From a virus (taxonomy: Duplodnaviria; Heunggongvirae; Uroviricota; Caudoviricetes): a stretch of DNA of 21,391 nt. The translations under genes and the position numbers were made by a program. Below are positions 8,899 to 20,403 of this stretch, piece by piece. The notes beneath the pieces are model-generated. The model was given only the letters and a program-made list of their open reading frames with translations. It was not told where the DNA came from and did not search any database. The stretch lies in IMG/VR virus record IMGVR_UViG_2778261068_000006, positions 1-21,391 of that record; one strand, written 5' to 3'. Every line of letters starts with the position of its first letter. The stretch's first letter is position 1.

Positions 8899-9387
8899 AG
8901 TGATGGAGACTCTTCAGGCCTCAGGAATCGAGAACAACACGGTGTAGCGTTTATCGATGCTGATTACGACACTGACAACTGGTTTGAGCGAGCCAAAGGA
9001 ATGGAATGGGAGACCGAACGTGGGAGGCGTTGTACTATGTGTTTTGACATGCGTTTTGAGCGGACAGCGCTGTACGCCGCTGAAAATGGTTTCAGTGTGA
9101 TCAGCAGTTCACTGGGCATTTCACGCTGGAAAAATATGCAGCAGGTTAACGACTGCGGACGGCGAGCTGTCGCACATTATCCGGGAATTGTGTACTGGGA
9201 TTATAACTGGCGCAAGCAGGGGGGCTTGTCCCGCATGATTGAAATCAGCAAACGCGAACAATTCTATCAGCAGGAATATTGTGGCTGTGTGCATTCTCTG
9301 CGCGATACCAATCTACACCGCAAATCTCAGGGACGCCCTCTTATCAAAATTGGTCAACTCCACTACGGTAAAGAAGAGAAGGAGTGA
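8899..9387 (+). pseudogene. Probable 5'-truncated gene fragment encoding a Cys-rich protein (CxxC ... CGC motifs); family uncertain (possibly DUF208/QueH-like, unverified)
   Basis: Open frame runs from 8899 to stop at 9387 but the first start codon is ATG 9001; upstream in-frame sequence ([20 protein letters not shown]) looks coding yet has no start; abrupt AT-rich junction at about 8880. Confidence 0.4.
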
Positions 9388-9580: not shown

Positions 9581-10654
9581 CTAGGTTAGCCTCTTACGTG
9601 CCGAAAGGCAAGGAGTTGTATGGGTCCACCACATATTGCAATTTTTGTTCTCTCTTAAAATATATTCCACGGGTGTCATTAGCGCGAGCGCCTTATGGGG
9701 CCTTTTGCTGTTATACAGCACCAGATATTCCGCCAGCTTCTGATTAAATAGCGCCAGATCTTCAAAGAGTAAAATCTCATTAAATTCAATAAACTGCTCT
9801 CTTAACGTCCGGTTAAAACGTTCACAGATAGCGTTCATTTTTGGCGTGTAGGGATAGGTCCAGAGGTGTTTGATAGCGGCTTCCTGCAGCGTTTTGTCGA
9901 AGTTTCCCAGGAACTCTTTTCCGTTATCTGTGATTATCTGGCTGATACCGACCGGGAACAACCGGGCTGCGCGGCTGAAGAAGTGATTGACGATATCACT
10001 GTTGAGTGACGGCACAGCCAGCGCCAGCGCGTAATTGCTGCATTCGTCGATCATGGTGATGACATAGCGACGCAGTTCGCCCATTCTGAGCTCAATGGCG
10101 TCCATCCCAATGAGCTCACCTGTCTTTACCGGGCGATAGTGCTTTGGCCTGCGGGGTTTGGCAGACCGCTTTTTGACAAGCAGTGCCTTCCCCCGCGATC
10201 CCAGACGCACAGGTATCATCCGCATTTTATCATGTGCGGCAGCGATCATTCTGCCGATGGTGGAAACACTCGGACAGGCCAGATAGCGCTGTTCGCACCA
10301 GGGCTTCAGGCGAACAAAAATCTGCTCTTTACCGAGGTTCGGCAGCTCTGTCCTGAGGCGTCGAATCTCTTTCAGCACATCGGGATGCCAGTGTTTTTTT
10401 CGTCGCACCAGAGGTGCCTTACTGTGCGGGATTAGCCCCTCAGGTCCTTCCTTGTTCAGTAACTGACGCCACCAGTAAAGCGTGCGGCAGGACACGCCAA
10501 AGGCTTCAGAAGCCGCAGAAATACCGTGTTTATCCCAGAAGTGCAGAGCCTTCATTCTCATTGTTGCTGTATCAGCCATCACTGAAAGCCTCAACGCATA
10601 ATCGGCCGTTTGGTAGTACTTAGGATAGCCAACCATCAGATGCTGCATTTGCAT
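9581..10654 (-). CDS. DDE transposase (HTH + rve integrase-core), IS481-family-like
   Basis: 357-aa ORF; HTH GISAASEAFGVSCRTLYWWRQ; catalytic triad candidates D (MIDECS), D (ITDNGKEF), E (NAICERFNRT); likely true start at internal Met (MADTATMRMK, about 10579). Confidence 0.8.
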   Translation of the reverse strand: MQMQHLMVGYPKYYQTADYALRLSVMADTATMRMKALHFWDKHGISAASEAFGVSCRTLYWWRQLLNKEGPEGLIPHSKAPLVRRKKHWHPDVLKEIRRLRTELPNLGKEQIFVRLKPWCEQRYLACPSVSTIGRMIAAAHDKMRMIPVRLGSRGKALLVKKRSAKPRRPKHYRPVKTGELIGMDAIELRMGELRRYVITMIDECSNYALALAVPSLNSDIVNHFFSRAARLFPVGISQIITDNGKEFLGNFDKTLQEAAIKHLWTYPYTPKMNAICERFNRTLREQFIEFNEILLFEDLALFNQKLAEYLVLYNSKRPHKALALMTPVEYILRENKNCNMWWTHTTPCLSARKRLT

Positions 10655-10702
10655 AGTGCAATTTCCCCTTACTTATCCTGAGGTAATTGCAATATCTCTG
10701 TG
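9581..10702 (-). mobile_element. Insertion sequence, IS481-family-like (single-ORF DDE transposase); boundaries approximate
   Basis: Transposase ORF plus candidate imperfect terminal inverted repeats CACATATTGCAATT (9630-9643) and AATTGCAATATCTCTGTG (10685-10702); no clean target-site duplication found, so ends are uncertain. Confidence 0.6.
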
Positions 10703-10725
10703 AACTTACACAGGAGAAGCAGGCT

Positions 10726-10881
10726 ATGAAGCAGCAAAAGGCGATGTTAATCGCCCTGATCGTCATCTGTTTAACCGTCATAGTGACGGCACTGGTAACG
10801 AGGAAAGACCTCTGCGAGGTACGAATCCGAACCGGACAGACGGAGGTCGCTGTTTTCGTAGACTACGAATCTAGAGAGTAA
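10726..10881 (+). CDS. hokD: Hok/Gef-family type I toxin (HokD-like)
   Basis: 51-aa product MKQQKAMLIALIVICLTVIVTALVTRKDLCEVRIRTGQTEVAVFVDYESRE matches the Hok family (single TM, conserved LCE.R..G..EVAA/VF); SD aggag at 10712-10716. Confidence 0.85.
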   Translation: MKQQKAMLIALIVICLTVIVTALVTRKDLCEVRIRTGQTEVAVFVDYESRE

Positions 10882-10950: not shown

Positions 10951-10976
10951 TAACCCGCTTCGGCGGGTTTTTTGTT
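10951..10976 (+). terminator. Rho-independent terminator downstream of hok
   Basis: aacccgc-ttcg-gcgggtt hairpin followed by TTTTTTGTTGTTT; preceded by 9-bp-stem hairpin ggcgggaga/tctcccgcc at 10891-10912 (hok mRNA 3' fold-back-like). Confidence 0.8.
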
Positions 10977-11483: not shown

Positions 11484-11762
11484 ATGGCGCAAAATTCCAG
11501 ATCACACAATTCTGATAATCTCGCTGTCTTTGCCAGCAGGCACGGGCGGCATTCGCACGCATTCAAATCTGACTGGTTCCAGCATGATCCATGCACTGAA
11601 GAACAGGCAGAGTGGCTAATTCAGAACTACCGCAGACGTGGGTATGAGTTCAGGAAAGCCCTCAGCCTCGATTATCGTCTCTGGATAATCTACGTCAGAC
11701 TCCCTTATTCCGAACGCCCACCGCGTCCGTCCCGCACATTCCAGCAACGCATCTGGAGGTAA
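11484..11762 (+). CDS. Hypothetical protein
   Basis: 92-aa ORF with SD ggag upstream; basic, GC-rich; tightly packed before DUF968 gene. Confidence 0.45.
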   Translation: MAQNSRSHNSDNLAVFASRHGRHSHAFKSDWFQHDPCTEEQAEWLIQNYRRRGYEFRKALSLDYRLWIIYVRLPYSERPPRPSRTFQQRIWR

Positions 11763-11763
11763 C

Positions 11764-12819
11764 GTGCGGGTATTACTTCGACCTGTTCCCGTACCGGAAC
11801 TTGGGCTGGTGGTGCTAAAGCCGGGGCGTGAATCTATGCCGGTATTTCACAATCCCCGGGTGCTGGTGGAGCCGGAACCAAAAATCATGCGCAGTCTGCC
11901 GTCCGGAGTCGTTCCTGCCGTTCGCCAGCCGCTGGCGGAGGATAAATCATTACTGCCATTTTTCAGCGATGAGCGGGTGATTCGTGCTGCTGGCGGCGCT
12001 GGTGCACTGTCTGACTGGCTGTTGCGCCATATTAAATCCTGCCAGTGGCCACACGGCGATTATCATCACAGCGAAACCGTCATTCACCGTTATGGTACCG
12101 GCGCCATGGTGTTGTGCTGGCACTGCGACAACCAGCTGCGTGACCAGACATCCGAATCACTCGGGCAACTTGCTCATCAAAACTTGTCAGCATGGATGAT
12201 TGACGTCATCCGTCACGCAATGAATGGCACACAGGAGCGGGAATTATCGCTGGCTGAATTATCCTGGTGGGCGGTCTGCAATCAGGTAGCGGACGCGCTA
12301 CCGGAGGCAGTATTACGTCGTTCTCTGGGGTTACGTGCGGAAAAAATCCACTCGGTATATCGCGAAAGCGACATCGTACCGGGAGAGCAGACCGCCACCA
12401 GCATACTGAAGCAGCGCACAAAAAATCTTGCGCCGCTGCCTCACGCCCACCAGCAAAACCCGCCACAGGAAAAGACGGTGGTCAGCATTGCCGTTGATCC
12501 GGAGTCACCGGCTCAGTATCTCCAGCGCCAGAAACCACAACGGGAAGAGATGCCTGTATACACGCGCTGGGTAAAAACGCAGAAATGCATGACGTGCGGT
12601 AATCAGGCAGATGATCCGCATCACATCATTGGTCATGGACTGGGAGGAATGGGAACAAAGGCTGATGATTTGTTTGTTATTCCGCTGTGCCGTAAATGTC
12701 ATAACGAACTGCACGCCGGGGTAAAAGATTTTGAAGAAAAACACGGCAGCCAGCTGTTGTTGCTGATTCGTTTTTTAATGCACGCGAGAAATTCGGGTGT
12801 CCTGAAGTGGAAAGCATGA
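11764..12819 (+). CDS. DUF968-family protein (YdfU-like) with C-terminal Cys/His zinc-binding motif
   Basis: 351-aa ORF (GTG start); C-terminus CMTCGNQADDPHHIIGHGLGG...IPLCRKCHNELH; immediately followed by rusA and Q, as ydfU precedes quuQ in Qin. Confidence 0.7.
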   Translation: MRVLLRPVPVPELGLVVLKPGRESMPVFHNPRVLVEPEPKIMRSLPSGVVPAVRQPLAEDKSLLPFFSDERVIRAAGGAGALSDWLLRHIKSCQWPHGDYHHSETVIHRYGTGAMVLCWHCDNQLRDQTSESLGQLAHQNLSAWMIDVIRHAMNGTQERELSLAELSWWAVCNQVADALPEAVLRRSLGLRAEKIHSVYRESDIVPGEQTATSILKQRTKNLAPLPHAHQQNPPQEKTVVSIAVDPESPAQYLQRQKPQREEMPVYTRWVKTQKCMTCGNQADDPHHIIGHGLGGMGTKADDLFVIPLCRKCHNELHAGVKDFEEKHGSQLLLLIRFLMHARNSGVLKWKA

Positions 12820-13185
12820 ATGACTGAACGCATAGAATTTGCTTTGCCTTACCCGCCGACGGTGAATACCTACTGGCGACGTCATGGCAATACGTATTTC
12901 ATCTCGGAGGCGGGAAAGCGTTATCGCCGTGATGTGGCGCTAATTGTTCGCCAGCAGCGGCTGAAATTAAACCTGTCCGGAAGGCTGGCGATAAAGATTA
13001 TTGCAGAGCCACCGGATAAGCGCCGTCGTGACCTGGACAATATCCTGAAAGCACCACTGGATGCGCTGACGCATGCCGGACTACTCATCGACGACGAGCA
13101 GTTTGATGAAATCAATATTGTGCGCGGTCAGCTCGTTCCTGGTGGGCGGCTGGGGATAAAAATCACAGAACTGGAGTGCGCATGA
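12820..13185 (+). CDS. rusA: RusA Holliday-junction resolvase
   Basis: 121-aa product; PYPPTVNTYWRRH, PDKRRRDLDNILKAPLDALT and GGRLGIKITELE align to E. coli RusA (PWPPSNNRYYRH..., [31 protein letters not shown]). Confidence 0.9.
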   Translation: MTERIEFALPYPPTVNTYWRRHGNTYFISEAGKRYRRDVALIVRQQRLKLNLSGRLAIKIIAEPPDKRRRDLDNILKAPLDALTHAGLLIDDEQFDEINIVRGQLVPGGRLGIKITELECA

Positions 13186-13871
13186 ATAACCAGTATTTAC
13201 AGTTTGTGCGTGAGCAGCTCATTGTCGCTACCGCTGATTTGAGTGGGGCAACAAAAGGTCAGCTTGAAGCCTGGCAAGAGAATGCCATGTTCGATACAGG
13301 GCGTTACAGGCGAAAAAAAATCCGGTACCGCGATGAAGTGACTGGAAAAATGATAACGCGGGATAATCCACCAATCCCGGGGAAGCAATCGCTGGCGAAG
13401 GGGACGTCAATTCCTCTGGTCAGTCCGGTTGAGTTTTCGACATCATCGTGGCGGCGGGCTGTTCTGTCTCTTGAAGAGCATCATAAAGCCTGGTTGTTGT
13501 GGTGTTACGGCGGAAACATTTGCTGGGAGCATCAGATCGCGATAACGCAGTGGGTGTGGAATGAATTTAAAACCCAGTCTGGTACCAGAAAAATTGCAGG
13601 AAAAACGCTGGAGCGTGTGAAGAAGTTGATATGGCTGGCGGCACAGGATGTCAGAGGATGGGTTACCGGGAGCGAGGTCTACCAGCGGCAGGAGCTTGCC
13701 AGACTGTGTGGAGTTAAGCCAGACAACTGGAGCCATAATTATGCGAACTACTGGCGTGAGATGTGCGACATTTTTAAGAATCTCGATACAGAATCCTTGA
13801 TTTCCACCGTGAAAAAGAGAACGCAACAAAAAGCGATCTTTTCACGACGAGATATTGCAAAAGTCAATTAA
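13176..13871 (+). CDS. Late-gene antiterminator, Q-like (QuuQ-like)
   Basis: 231-aa ORF between rusA and a tR'-type terminator; alternative start ATG 13182 gives ATGA coupling with rusA stop; call is largely positional. Confidence 0.55.
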   Translation: MRMNNQYLQFVREQLIVATADLSGATKGQLEAWQENAMFDTGRYRRKKIRYRDEVTGKMITRDNPPIPGKQSLAKGTSIPLVSPVEFSTSSWRRAVLSLEEHHKAWLLWCYGGNICWEHQIAITQWVWNEFKTQSGTRKIAGKTLERVKKLIWLAAQDVRGWVTGSEVYQRQELARLCGVKPDNWSHNYANYWREMCDIFKNLDTESLISTVKKRTQQKAIFSRRDIAKVN

Positions 13872-13934
13872 ATCGCGTACATTTTGTGTAAATCTGATAT
13901 TTTGCCGATTTTGTATGCGATGGCAAAGTAAGCA

Positions 13935-13960
13935 AAACCCGCCGATAAGCGGGTTTTTTG
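13935..13960 (+). terminator. tR'-like intrinsic terminator downstream of Q (late promoter PR'/qut expected at 13850-13934)
   Basis: aaacccgc-cgataa-gcgggttt perfect 8-bp stem followed by TTTTTTG; candidate promoter TTGCAA (13855-13860), 17 bp, TACATT. Confidence 0.8.
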
Positions 13961-13967
13961 TATTACA

Positions 13968-14864
13968 ATGCATGCGTTTAATTACTTTTTGGACCATTGC
14001 AACATGAAATCAGATAAGGCAGAAAACTTAGAGAATCCACTCGAACGTAATGATTTTACAATTGATGACTTCCACCATGTTCTTAGGGAGTTTGATAAAG
14101 CTGTTTGTGAAGCCAATGCGGTAAGTCAGGGAGTAGGTGTGCGAATGGCTGAGGCTTATCAAGGTTGGTCAACATATATATTTGCACGAATTTGCATTCA
14201 TGCTTCGATTATGATTTCTAATGTTCCTAAGTCCAGATGGGCTAAGCGAGATTACGATTTCTGGGATTTTGCTTCTATAGCATCTCATGTCAGGGCGATC
14301 CTTGAAGCTGAACTTCTGTTTATGTATTTGTCTGAAGCACCAGATTCAGAAGAGGCTTGGTCAGCAAAGCTAAATGTTATGCACATGAATGATTGTGTAA
14401 AAAGGATAGAATTATTCACGCAAAGTGATAATACAGAAGCATTAGGGTTTTATAATGAGCAACAGAGTATAATTGCGGAAAGACTCAATAAAAACCCTGC
14501 TTTTTTATCACTTGATAGTGGTACTAGGAAACGTTGCTTGTCAGGCAAGGCTTTAACAATTCCTAATAGAGACGATTTATTGATTAAACTAGGGAAAGAC
14601 CCAAAATCGTTTAAAGTGATGTTTGATTTTCTATCGCATTACACACACATACTCCCTATGTCATATTACAAAATGGAACCGAATGGGAGAGGGACTGGTT
14701 GTTTTAACAAGTTCGATTTTGGATATATAATAATGGGTATGTTGCTATGTACTGAATCTTTGATTAAGTGTACTGAACGGTTGGTGGATATTTTCCCTGA
14801 TGTTAAACGGTTAAGAAAAGGAACTAAATCAAAATTTACATTGGGCCCTAAACCAACAAAATAA
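13968..14864 (+). CDS. Hypothetical protein, AT-rich late-region cargo gene in the Q-tR'-holin slot; function unknown
   Basis: 298-aa ORF (alternative start ATG 14004, MKSDKAENL...); clearly lower GC than flanking phage genes; no signal peptide or TM segment evident; no family recognised. Confidence 0.7.
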   Translation: MHAFNYFLDHCNMKSDKAENLENPLERNDFTIDDFHHVLREFDKAVCEANAVSQGVGVRMAEAYQGWSTYIFARICIHASIMISNVPKSRWAKRDYDFWDFASIASHVRAILEAELLFMYLSEAPDSEEAWSAKLNVMHMNDCVKRIELFTQSDNTEALGFYNEQQSIIAERLNKNPAFLSLDSGTRKRCLSGKALTIPNRDDLLIKLGKDPKSFKVMFDFLSHYTHILPMSYYKMEPNGRGTGCFNKFDFGYIIMGMLLCTESLIKCTERLVDIFPDVKRLRKGTKSKFTLGPKPTK

Positions 14865-17664: not shown

Positions 17665-18015
17665 ATGCCAGCACTAATCCCACGCGCCTGCCGTAAACGT
17701 GGATGTGCAGGTACAACCACAGACAGTTCTGGTTACTGCGATAAACATCGTGGCGAAGGATGGGCACAGCATCAACGCGGACTAAGTCGCCACCAGCGTG
17801 GCTATGGCACGAAATGGGATGCCATACGTGCGCGCATACTGAAGCGTGATAATCATCTGTGTCAGAACTGCCTGCGCAATGGGAGAGCCGTTGAAGCCAG
17901 AACTGTGGACCACATCATTCCGAAAGCTCATGGTGGCACGGATGCAGACAGTAACCTGCAGAGTCTGTGCTGGCCCTGCCATAAAGCAAAAACAGCGCGC
18001 GAACGCATCAATTGA
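17665..18015 (+). CDS. HNH endonuclease (terminase-associated)
   Basis: 116-aa product with Cys-rich N-terminus and HNH core DHIIPKAHGGTDADSNLQSLCWPCHKAK; immediately upstream of terS/terL as in HK97-like phages. Confidence 0.85.
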   Translation: MPALIPRACRKRGCAGTTTDSSGYCDKHRGEGWAQHQRGLSRHQRGYGTKWDAIRARILKRDNHLCQNCLRNGRAVEARTVDHIIPKAHGGTDADSNLQSLCWPCHKAKTARERIN

Positions 18016-18163: not shown

Positions 18164-18646
18164 ATGTCAGGACCCCCGAAAACCCCGCCACGCCTGCATT
18201 TGATACGAGGCAACCCCTCAAAGCGCCCCGTTAAAGACCCAAAAAAAATCGCTAAAAAGGATGAAAAAGGTCTCCCTAAAATTCCGCAACATTTAGGGGC
18301 ACAGGGGAAGTACTGGTTCAGGCGAATGGCGGAAGAACTGAATGCGGAAGGGATCATTTCTCAGCTTGATGCGCGTGCACTCGAGTTACTGGTGGAAGCC
18401 TACACCGAATACCGGCATCACTGCGAAACACTCGATGTTGAGGGGTATACCTACCGCACGGAAACGCAGAGCGGTGATGTACTGATTAAGGCGCACCCCG
18501 CGGCGGCAATGAAAGCGGATGCCTGGAAGCGGATCCGGGCAATGCTTGCAGAGTTTGGTATGTCACCGGCAAGCCGGGCTAAAGTAAATATCGCCGGACC
18601 GGATGATGTTGATCCGCTGGCGGAGCTTTTAAAAGCGAGAGACTGA
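18164..18646 (+). CDS. Terminase small subunit (P27 family)
   Basis: 160-aa ORF immediately upstream of and ATGA-coupled to the terminase large subunit; basic N-terminus. Confidence 0.8.
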   Translation: MSGPPKTPPRLHLIRGNPSKRPVKDPKKIAKKDEKGLPKIPQHLGAQGKYWFRRMAEELNAEGIISQLDARALELLVEAYTEYRHHCETLDVEGYTYRTETQSGDVLIKAHPAAAMKADAWKRIRAMLAEFGMSPASRAKVNIAGPDDVDPLAELLKARD

Positions 18647-20403
18647 TGGCAAAAGTGGCTGACGGGATCCGCTACGCCGAACGTGTTGTTGCAGGAGAAA
18701 TTGTTGCTGGCGAATTTGTCCGTCTGGCCTGCCAGCGTTTTCTTGATGATCTGAAGTACGGCGAAGAGCGGGGGATTTATTTCAGTGAACCCCGTGCGCA
18801 GCACATCCTGAATTTCTACAAATTTGTACCTCATGTAAAAGGGGTGCTGGCAGGCCAGCCCATTGACTTGATGGACTGGCATGTATTTATCCTCATTAAT
18901 ATTTTTGGTTTTGTCATTCCGCTGGTGAATGAAGATACCGGGGAAGTTGTCATGCGCAGCGATGGCAGCGGACGTCCGGTGATGGTGCGCCGGTTCCGGA
19001 CGGCGTACAACGAAGTCGCCCGTAAAAACGCAAAATCAACTCTGTCATCGGGTATCGGCCTGTATATGACGGGGGCAGATGGTGAAGGCGGAGCTGAGGT
19101 GTATTCAGCCGCAACCACGCGTGACCAGGCCAGAATCGTGTTTGAAGACGCCAAAAATATGGTCAGAAAAGCCCGGTCGACACTCGGGCGGTTGTTTGAT
19201 TTCAACAAGCTGGCGATTTACCAGGAGCAGAGCGCATCAAAATTTGAACCGCTTTCTTCGGATGCAAACAACCTGGATGGTCTGAACATCCACTGCGCCA
19301 TTATTGATGAGCTGCATGCACATAAAACCCGTGACGTGTGGGACGTTCTGGAAACGGCAACCGGTGCCCGTCTGCAGTCCCTTTTATTTGGTATCACCAC
19401 GGCAGGGTTTAACAAGGAAGGGATTTGTTACGAGCAGCGTGATTACGCCATCAAGGTATTGCGTGGCTATAACAGCGACGTGGAGGGCGCGGTAAAAGAC
19501 GACTCCTACTTTGCGATTATTTACACCCTCGATGAGGGAGATGATCCGTTTGATGAAACGGTCTGGCAGAAAGCGAATCCTGGCCTGGGCATCTGTAAAC
19601 GCTGGGATGATCTGCGTCGCCTGGCAAAAAAAGCGAAGGAGCAGGTCTCTGCGCGGGTGAATTTTTTCACGAAACACATGAATGTGTGGGTGACAGCAGA
19701 GTCTGCCTGGATGGACATGATTAAGTGGGAGAAATGCGAATACATTGCCCCACGACATGAGCTGAAAACGTATCCCATGTGGGTCGGCGTTGACCTTGCT
19801 CATAAGATTGATATCTGTGCGGCGACAAAACTCTGGCGAACGGATAACGGGCATGTTCATGCCGATTTTAAATTCTGGCTCCCGGAAGGACGGCTGGAAC
19901 GATGCTCGCGGCAGCAGGCAGAACTTTACCGGAAGTGGGCGGAGATGGATAAGCTGATTCTGACGGATGGTGATGTTATCGATCATGCTCAGATAAAAAG
20001 TGACTTACTGGAATGGATTGGTGGTGAAAACCTCAGGGAACTGGGATTTGACCCGTGGAGCGCAATGCAGTTCAGCCTGGCACTGGCTGAAGAAGGGATA
20101 CCGCTGGTGGAGGTTCCGCAGACGGTCCGCAATCTGTCAGAGGCCATGAAGGAAACGGAATCACTGGTCTATGCGGGGCGTTTCCATCACAGCAATCATC
20201 CGGTCATGAACTGGATGATGTCTAACGTTACGGTAAAACCGGACAAAAACGACAATATCTTCCCGAATAAATCCACGCCGGAAGCCAAAATCGACGGCCC
20301 TGTTGCGATGTTTACAGCAATGAGCCGGATGCTGGTCAATGGTGGTGAACCGGAGCCGGATCTGTCTGAACATCTGGTCAGCGTGGGCATCCGCTCGCTT
20401 TAA
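18646..20403 (+). CDS. Terminase large subunit (HK97-like)
   Basis: 585-aa ORF; size, position and nuclease-region acidic residues consistent with TerL. Confidence 0.9.

Follow-up and report, generated by a model that had tools for sequence, protein, structure and literature searches.

The locus examined here raises a simple question: what does the protein encoded immediately upstream of the Holliday-junction resolvase gene rusA do for the phage? The window, i.e., the whole stretch of 21,391 nucleotides that was analysed (IMG/VR record IMGVR_UViG_2778261068_000006), is a Rac/Qin-like lambdoid prophage, in which an exonuclease gene, repressors, replication genes and hok are followed by a gene of the YdfU/DUF968 family, rusA, the antiterminator gene Q, lysis genes and terminase genes. 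We favour, at slightly better than even odds (about 0.55), the reading that the two-module YdfU/DUF968 protein is a phage DNA endonuclease that acts on recombination or replication intermediates and is expressed from the delayed-early operon.

The features of the gene and of its immediate neighbours are given in Table 1. Many database proteins, named 'DUF968 domain-containing protein' by NCBI, are 96-97% identical to the window protein and share both its length of 351 aa and its start. The gene is tightly packed among its neighbours: the stop codon of the preceding 92-aa ORF (TAA, 11760-11762) is separated from the GTG by 1 nt, the stop codon of the DUF968 gene abuts the ATG of rusA (12820) with no gap, just as the initial annotation had read it, and the ATG of Q (13182) overlaps the TGA of rusA as ATGA. 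These four cistrons (92-aa ORF, DUF968, rusA and Q) lie head to tail on one strand with stops and starts that abut or overlap. The delayed-early (nin-like) operon ends with the DUF968 gene or has it in the last place but one, and here the gene is packed against rusA and Q. The terminator-like hairpin found near the 3' end of the DUF968 gene is probably a chance occurrence, since such sites are no commoner in the region than in shuffled sequence.

Table 1. Features of the DUF968 gene and of the gene block around it (window coordinates).
Feature	Position	Strand	Details
92-aa ORF, phrog_1212	11484..11762	+	same gene block, 5' of the DUF968 gene
Ribosome-binding site GGAGG	11755..11759	+	4 nt 5' of the GTG; read from the sequence
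YdfU/DUF968-family gene	11764..12819	+	351 aa; start GTG 11764, stop TGA 12817-12819
N-terminal module, aa 1-225	11764..12438	+	no known family or fold found
Putative zinc site C93, H101, C118, C121	12040..12126	+	within the C-Q...C-W-H-C-D-N motif
Low-confidence linker, aa 222-248	12427..12507	+	pLDDT <50 at aa 232-239; mosaic breakpoint here
Predicted His-Me (HNH) finger domain, aa 249-343	12508..12792	+	DUF968 E 2e-43; HNHc_6 34.7 bits
Putative catalytic and zinc core C275, C278, H286, H287, D302, C309, C312, H313, H317	12586..12714	+	
Terminator-like hairpin and T run in the 3' end of the DUF968 gene	12744..12765	+	~55 nt before rusA
rusA, 121 aa	12820..13185	+	Pfam RusA E 8.4e-16; PHROG 34 E 2.7e-56
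Q antiterminator, PF06323 type	13182..13871	+	Pfam Phage_antiter_Q E 1.5e-86
Terminator-like hairpin and T run after Q	13934..13957	+	consensus scan only; end of the gene block

Several other genes of the window deserve a mention. Just upstream of the block lies a Hok/Gef toxin ORF (10687-10881, + strand, E 9.8e-23), followed by a strong terminator-like hairpin (10952-10969). Further upstream, a QueH ORF (9001-9387, + strand) covers only positions 76-174 of its profile and appears truncated; it adjoins an insertion-sequence transposase gene (9581-10654, - strand) with rve/rve_3 and HTH domains, and in the closest E. coli prophage queH is intact and the insertion sequence is absent from the corresponding site. 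Between the terminator that follows Q and the holin genes lies an ORF of 298 aa (13968-14864, + strand), which matched Pfam DUF5677 below threshold (23.5 bits, cutoff 27.1), has relatives annotated as DUF5677, gave no match in PADLOC and looks like cargo in a position proximal to the late promoter. Finally, a second, classical HNH gene (17665-18015, + strand, PF01844 E 1.9e-16) directly precedes terS and adjoins the P27-type terS (18164-18646) and terL (18646-20403) genes; it is the usual packaging-associated HNH.

On sequence comparison, the match of the window protein to the DUF968/HNH families is far beyond chance. The Pfam DUF968 model (PF06147) matched aa 160-343 at E 3.9e-64 and 216.2 bits (cutoff 27.8), which, together with full-length similarity to YdfU, places the protein in the DUF968/YdfU family, and PHROG 96 ('HNH endonuclease') matched aa 1-348 at E 1e-165. 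HNHc_6 (PF16784) exceeded its gathering cutoff of 26.6 bits with the whole protein (31.7 bits) and with the C-terminal fragment (34.7 bits), the match being confined to the HNH part of that profile (positions 119-184). The classical HNH model PF01844 was matched along its whole length below threshold (E 0.011), and a search of NCBIfam with the window protein found no match. These searches bear out the DUF968 assignment and the HNH-like cluster of Cys and His residues proposed in the initial annotation. The same annotation had left the N-terminal 240 aa unassigned, which stands for aa 1-159, outside all Pfam models, and falls for the remainder, which is covered by the DUF968 model.

The classification itself is already in print. 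Jablonska et al. (2017) assigned both DUF968 and DUF1364 to group 7 within the His-Me finger superfamily, naming YdfU and YbcO (PDB 3g27), reported RusA, Q and antirepressors as their neighbours, and proposed a NinG-like role as recombination or repair nucleases (PMC5714182). For YbcO, Kaur and Subramanian (2016) predicted that it acts as a nuclease, and they connected it by FFAS with P1 Ref (PMC4999995). The initial reading of the locus thus rediscovers a published prediction, and the window copy is an ordinary, intact member of an already catalogued family. YdfU itself continues to be listed as uncharacterised (PMC11551758), and our search of the literature found no biochemical activity for any DUF968 or DUF1364 member.

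Is the predicted nuclease domain complete? We used two alignments: the window protein with 30 full-length representatives (n = 31, 25-96% identity) and a set of 80 unique homologues from different species, mostly Enterobacterales (42-95% identity). The cluster reads C275-M-T-C278 ... H286-H287 ... C309-R-K-C312-H313-N-E-L-H317. H286, H287, D302, H313 and H317 are present in all 80 sequences of the species set and in 27-31 of the 31 representatives; C275, C278 and C309 are likewise found in 80/80 of the species set, and position 312 alternates between Cys and His. The full AlphaFold2 model (pLDDT 87.9) has a strand at aa 284-287, a loop, a strand at aa 305-308 and a helix at aa 310-318, the strands and the helix with local pLDDT above 90, so that a beta-beta-alpha-metal topology is predicted for aa 284-318. 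The absence of a metal-binding nuclease fold would have spoken against the initial annotation; the model instead contains both the beta-hairpin followed by a helix and the catalytic His at the end of strand 1 with metal ligands on the helix that define the His-Me (HNH) finger superfamily. By analogy with colicin E9, we take H287 to be the putative general base and H286, H313 and H317 to be putative metal ligands, and C275, C278, C309 and C312 would bind a structural zinc.

Structural comparisons point in the same direction. Foldseek gave no significant match of the full model in the PDB (fold E >= 0.87), the better-scoring among its weak matches being mostly HNH proteins (Cascade-HNH, ScoMcrA, IscB, Cap5, Gme). 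In a library of viral structures, the model matched stand-alone DUF968 phage proteins of ~110 aa (E 7.8e-8, TM 0.76, rmsd 1.2 A) and, weakly, a Ref-like RecA-dependent nuclease (E 0.12). A profile of the HNH domain searched against PDB sequences matched YbcO (3g27, E 0.021) and McrA (6ghc, E 0.036), both weakly and in the catalytic register; the 'HH...CH.ELH' of McrA aligns in register with the HNH motif of the window protein. On both sequence and model, the C-terminal ~100 aa form a complete His-Me (HNH) finger, and its catalytic competence in the window protein is well supported. The retention of all catalytic residues in the window protein and in 80 of 80 relatives points to selection for catalysis in the Enterobacterales clade. 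The initial suggestion of a second nucleic-acid enzyme co-expressed with RusA is therefore supported computationally by the full set of His-Me residues, the HNH proteins among the structural neighbours and the abutting cistrons.

The N-terminal 225 aa, as sequence and model present them, are a separate, family-specific module with its own Cys/His site and a flexible linker between it and the finger. AlphaFold2 run on aa 1-225 alone gave a pLDDT of 90.7 and a pTM of 0.76, and the predicted layout comprises a small beta sheet, helices, a beta-hairpin with a helix (aa 105-125) and a helical region (aa 131-219). Pfam gave no match to aa 1-135 even at E<=10, and the best Foldseek match of the aa 1-225 model in the PDB had an E of 4.2. 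Searches of PDB sequences with profiles returned chance matches only for this module and none for the full-length profile, and the viral structure library contained no significant match to the module; the significant ones are the ~110-aa stand-alone DUF968 proteins, so that the matches in this library cover the C-terminal domain only. C93 and C118 are invariant in the 31 representatives and in the set of 80 species. At position 101, 30 of the 31 representatives have Cys or His and one has Asn, and all 80 sequences of the species set have His; only Cys or His occurs at position 121, and W119 and D122 are nearly invariant. In the AlphaFold2 model, C118 and C121 sit at the junction of the beta-hairpin (aa 105-118) and the helix (aa 119-125). 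From this pattern we infer that C93, H101, C118 and C121 form a structural zinc site.

Two more specific identities of this module were considered. The first, which we retain only as a speculation, is a second His-Me finger that arose by internal duplication: C93...H101-H102...C118-x-x-C121-D122 has the same register as C275...H286-H287...C309-x-x-C312-H313, and hhalign returned this expected register without significance (P 0.06; in a second run P 0.015, probability 3%). The second is an Orf/NinB-like domain, as was proposed by Curtis (2014) for the N-terminal part of 'DUF968' proteins of Listeria and Staphylococcus (PMC4118853), which are now classified as HNHc_6; we rejected it for the window protein, because the hhalign comparison of our N-terminal profile with lambda NinB gave a probability of 0.1%.

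The evolution of the family shows which of these sites can be lost. In a PdcB-like clade (the representatives P0199, P0208 and P0233, and Upf95.7 of P7), H286, H287, H313 and H317 have been lost, which predicts an inactive finger, whereas the four Cys and the N-terminal module are preserved. In another clade of the 31-sequence set the His residues are kept and C278, C309 and C312 are lost together. Given these two losses, the zinc site and the catalytic site of the finger each appear dispensable somewhere in the family, and the N-terminal site does not. The PdcB clade has retained the protein after losing every catalytic His, which suggests that at least part of the family's function does not require cleavage and counts against the endonuclease reading. 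One could go further and regard the protein as mainly DNA- or protein-binding, its HNH finger being a zinc or structural module with weak or dispensable nuclease activity; the persistence of the N-terminal module and of the four Cys in the PdcB-like clade fits such a role, as does an N-terminal Cys/His site at least as conserved as the catalytic one, but we consider it unlikely for the window protein, which retains every catalytic residue, as do 80 of 80 relatives.

The two parts of the gene also have different histories. DNA identity to ydfU of E. coli K-12 is ~87% up to nt ~720 of the gene and 59-70% beyond, with a breakpoint at window position ~12484 (gene nt ~721, aa ~241), in the disordered linker. 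The protein is 87-96% identical to its E. coli relatives upstream of the breakpoint, and its HNH domain is 62% identical to that of K-12 YdfU, against 87-89% for the rest. From this drop in identity at the linker, the HNH domain seems to move as one unit with the rusA/Q module that follows it. Apart from this, in many database proteins the N-terminal part of a YdfU-type protein is fused to tail-tip J, tail fibre, portal or capsid domains, and in others the HNH part is fused to partial Dam, MT-A70, replication-O or LexA-like pieces (P0146, P0175, P0177, P0227, P0127, P0160, P0147; P0189, P0200, P0266, P0204). Since most of the partner domains are truncated versions of genes found elsewhere in prophages of this type, we rejected the fusions as genuine architectures and read them as in-frame deletion chimeras from prophages in decay.

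We then considered the genetic context in a synteny sample of 80 loci (L095-L174), drawn from different species, the majority of them Enterobacterales, with identities of 42-95%. In all 80 the DUF968 gene stands directly before Q or before RusA-Q. A Q-type antiterminator is the gene directly downstream in 77 of them, and it belongs to the families PF06530 (32 loci), PF03589/YdfT type (16), PF06323 (11), DUF1133 (11) or an unassigned type of ~200 aa (7). RusA is less closely associated with the gene than the window alone would imply: it directly follows the DUF968 gene in 3 loci and directly precedes it in 12, i.e., it is directly adjacent in only 15/80, and in 54 it is encoded on the same strand no more than 3 kb away. 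It lies ~0.7-1.8 kb away from the DUF968 gene in 39 loci, and the intervening ORF looked by eye like a Rha/KilA-N-type antirepressor in the five loci inspected. A Serratia phage and metagenomic relatives at 35-39% identity again have the genes in the order DUF968-RusA-Q; a synteny scan of viral contigs returned close relatives only (83-97% identity). Two of the neighbouring genes are of interest in their own right. The ~200-aa type in the position of Q (e.g., in L126, +13 to +612 after the DUF968 stop, where it starts with 'MTPRQRR...') stands ahead of lysis genes, has no Pfam family and may be an undescribed Q-like family. In a distant relative (L087:1112-1450), a protein of 112 aa occupies the RusA slot between DUF968 and the antiterminator; its sub-threshold similarity to DUF1064 and T7 endonuclease I suggests that it may be a non-orthologous replacement of RusA.

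The regular proximity to Q might indicate a role at the switch from early to late expression instead of recombination, e.g., a nick that starts rolling-circle replication or an action together with the late-gene activator. Besides the 77 loci with one of five Q sequence families directly downstream, PdcB stands directly upstream of the unrelated late activator Lpa in P1 and P7. Yet some gene has to precede Q as the last one of a lambdoid early operon, Q and its target site are a known exchangeable module, and the mosaic joint inside the DUF968 gene fits passive linkage; in P1, lpa has its own C1-controlled operator. We therefore regard such a role as improbable. A bolder version combines this position with the conservation of the N-terminal module, and we give it similarly little credence: the N-terminal 225 aa would be a new zinc-binding fold, possibly a degenerate His-Me duplicate, and the functional core of the family, as its preservation even where catalysis is lost (PdcB) would suggest, and the family would be functionally tied to late-gene activation, since its genes directly precede five unrelated Q families and, in P1, Lpa. 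Whatever its role, this conserved module without a known fold is the sole part of the window gene with discovery potential.

HNH domains are also common in homing, packaging and defence. Moreover, 4554 of 5426 complete E. coli genomes have a match to the region with the window gene, a frequency that might be due to some advantage for the host. These observations could be accommodated by a selfish or accessory HNH protein, i.e., a homing endonuclease, a partner of the packaging terminase, or a nuclease for prophage defence or exclusion, but each variant meets contrary evidence and we think the whole class very unlikely. Homing genes are distributed sporadically, whereas the synteny of the DUF968 gene is fixed in 80/80 loci. 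A packaging role of the HK97 gp74 type is hard to reconcile with a gene that lies ~5 kb upstream of terS in a prophage where the HNH gene at 17665-18015 fills that role beside terS and terL. As to defence, no PADLOC model matched the window protein at E<=0.01.

The reading as an endonuclease of recombination or replication intermediates leads to the following scenario, in which the substrate and the partnership with RusA are suggested by gene position and analogy. The protein would be produced alongside RusA, ahead of the late genes, and would work as a metal-dependent DNA endonuclease. Its cuts or nicks would fall in phage DNA that is branched, forms D-loops or derives from replication, with the N-terminal module supplying substrate recognition, targeting or the binding of a partner. 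It could thereby fill the niche that the His-Me nuclease Rap/NinG has in lambda, and in DLP12 the same niche may be filled by YbcO, beside RusA. Genes of the YdfU type rank among the most widespread of the uncharacterised genes that enterobacterial prophages carry. If they encode a structure-specific nuclease alongside RusA, this would explain part of the processing of intermediates in lambdoid phages that lack Rap and would give a function to a 'y-gene' of K-12; the window copy adds nothing to this beyond the family.

The closest of the known systems is YdfU of K-12 (b1560, Qin cryptic prophage), which is 80% identical to the window protein over 348 aa, has the same three-part layout and is encoded directly upstream of the prophage Q gene ydfT. 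It reads C-R-K-H-H where the window protein reads C-R-K-C-H, and rusA is absent between ydfU and Q in Qin, whereas it is present there in the window. As the DUF968 gene does in the window, ybcO of DLP12 presumably precedes rusA and Q directly. Its product in DLP12/phage 82, YbcO (DUF1364, PDB 3g27), aligns with the window HNH domain in the catalytic register, although the sequence match is weak (E 0.02-0.4), and with 96 aa it is the finger alone, without the 225-aa N-terminal module of the window protein; both belong to His-Me finger group 7 (PMC5714182).

Rap/NinG of lambda (PF05766) is a branch-specific endonuclease with a His-Me finger, whose gene lies upstream of Q, towards the end of the nin region (PMC5714182). 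The window protein has no Pfam NinG match, which places it outside that family; an hhalign comparison with lambda NinG covered 18 columns around the CxxC...H with a probability of 6.7%, and the N-terminal regions of the two proteins are unrelated. NinG and DUF968 occurred together in 0/80 of the sampled loci (one NinG query sequence, +/-3 kb flank), and the lambda genes NinB, NinH and NinI were also found in none. Ref of P1 (PF16786, PDB 3plw) is a RecA-dependent phage HNH nuclease that acts on recombination intermediates. The window protein shares with it a weak fold match, through a Ref-like viral protein, and no significant sequence match, and the N-terminus of Ref is disordered and basic, whereas that of the window protein is a folded module of 225 aa.

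PdcB of P1 and P7 (Upf95.7, L002:2405-3448) is a full-length homologue with ~27% identity that shares the N-terminal Cys/His motif and is encoded immediately upstream of the late-gene activator Lpa in both phages. In P1, pdcB is a non-essential gene to which no function is assigned (PMC10695390, PMC10067587). It belongs to the phd-doc region of a non-lambdoid phage, and all four of its catalytic His are replaced (PY...Q...E), whereas the window protein retains them.
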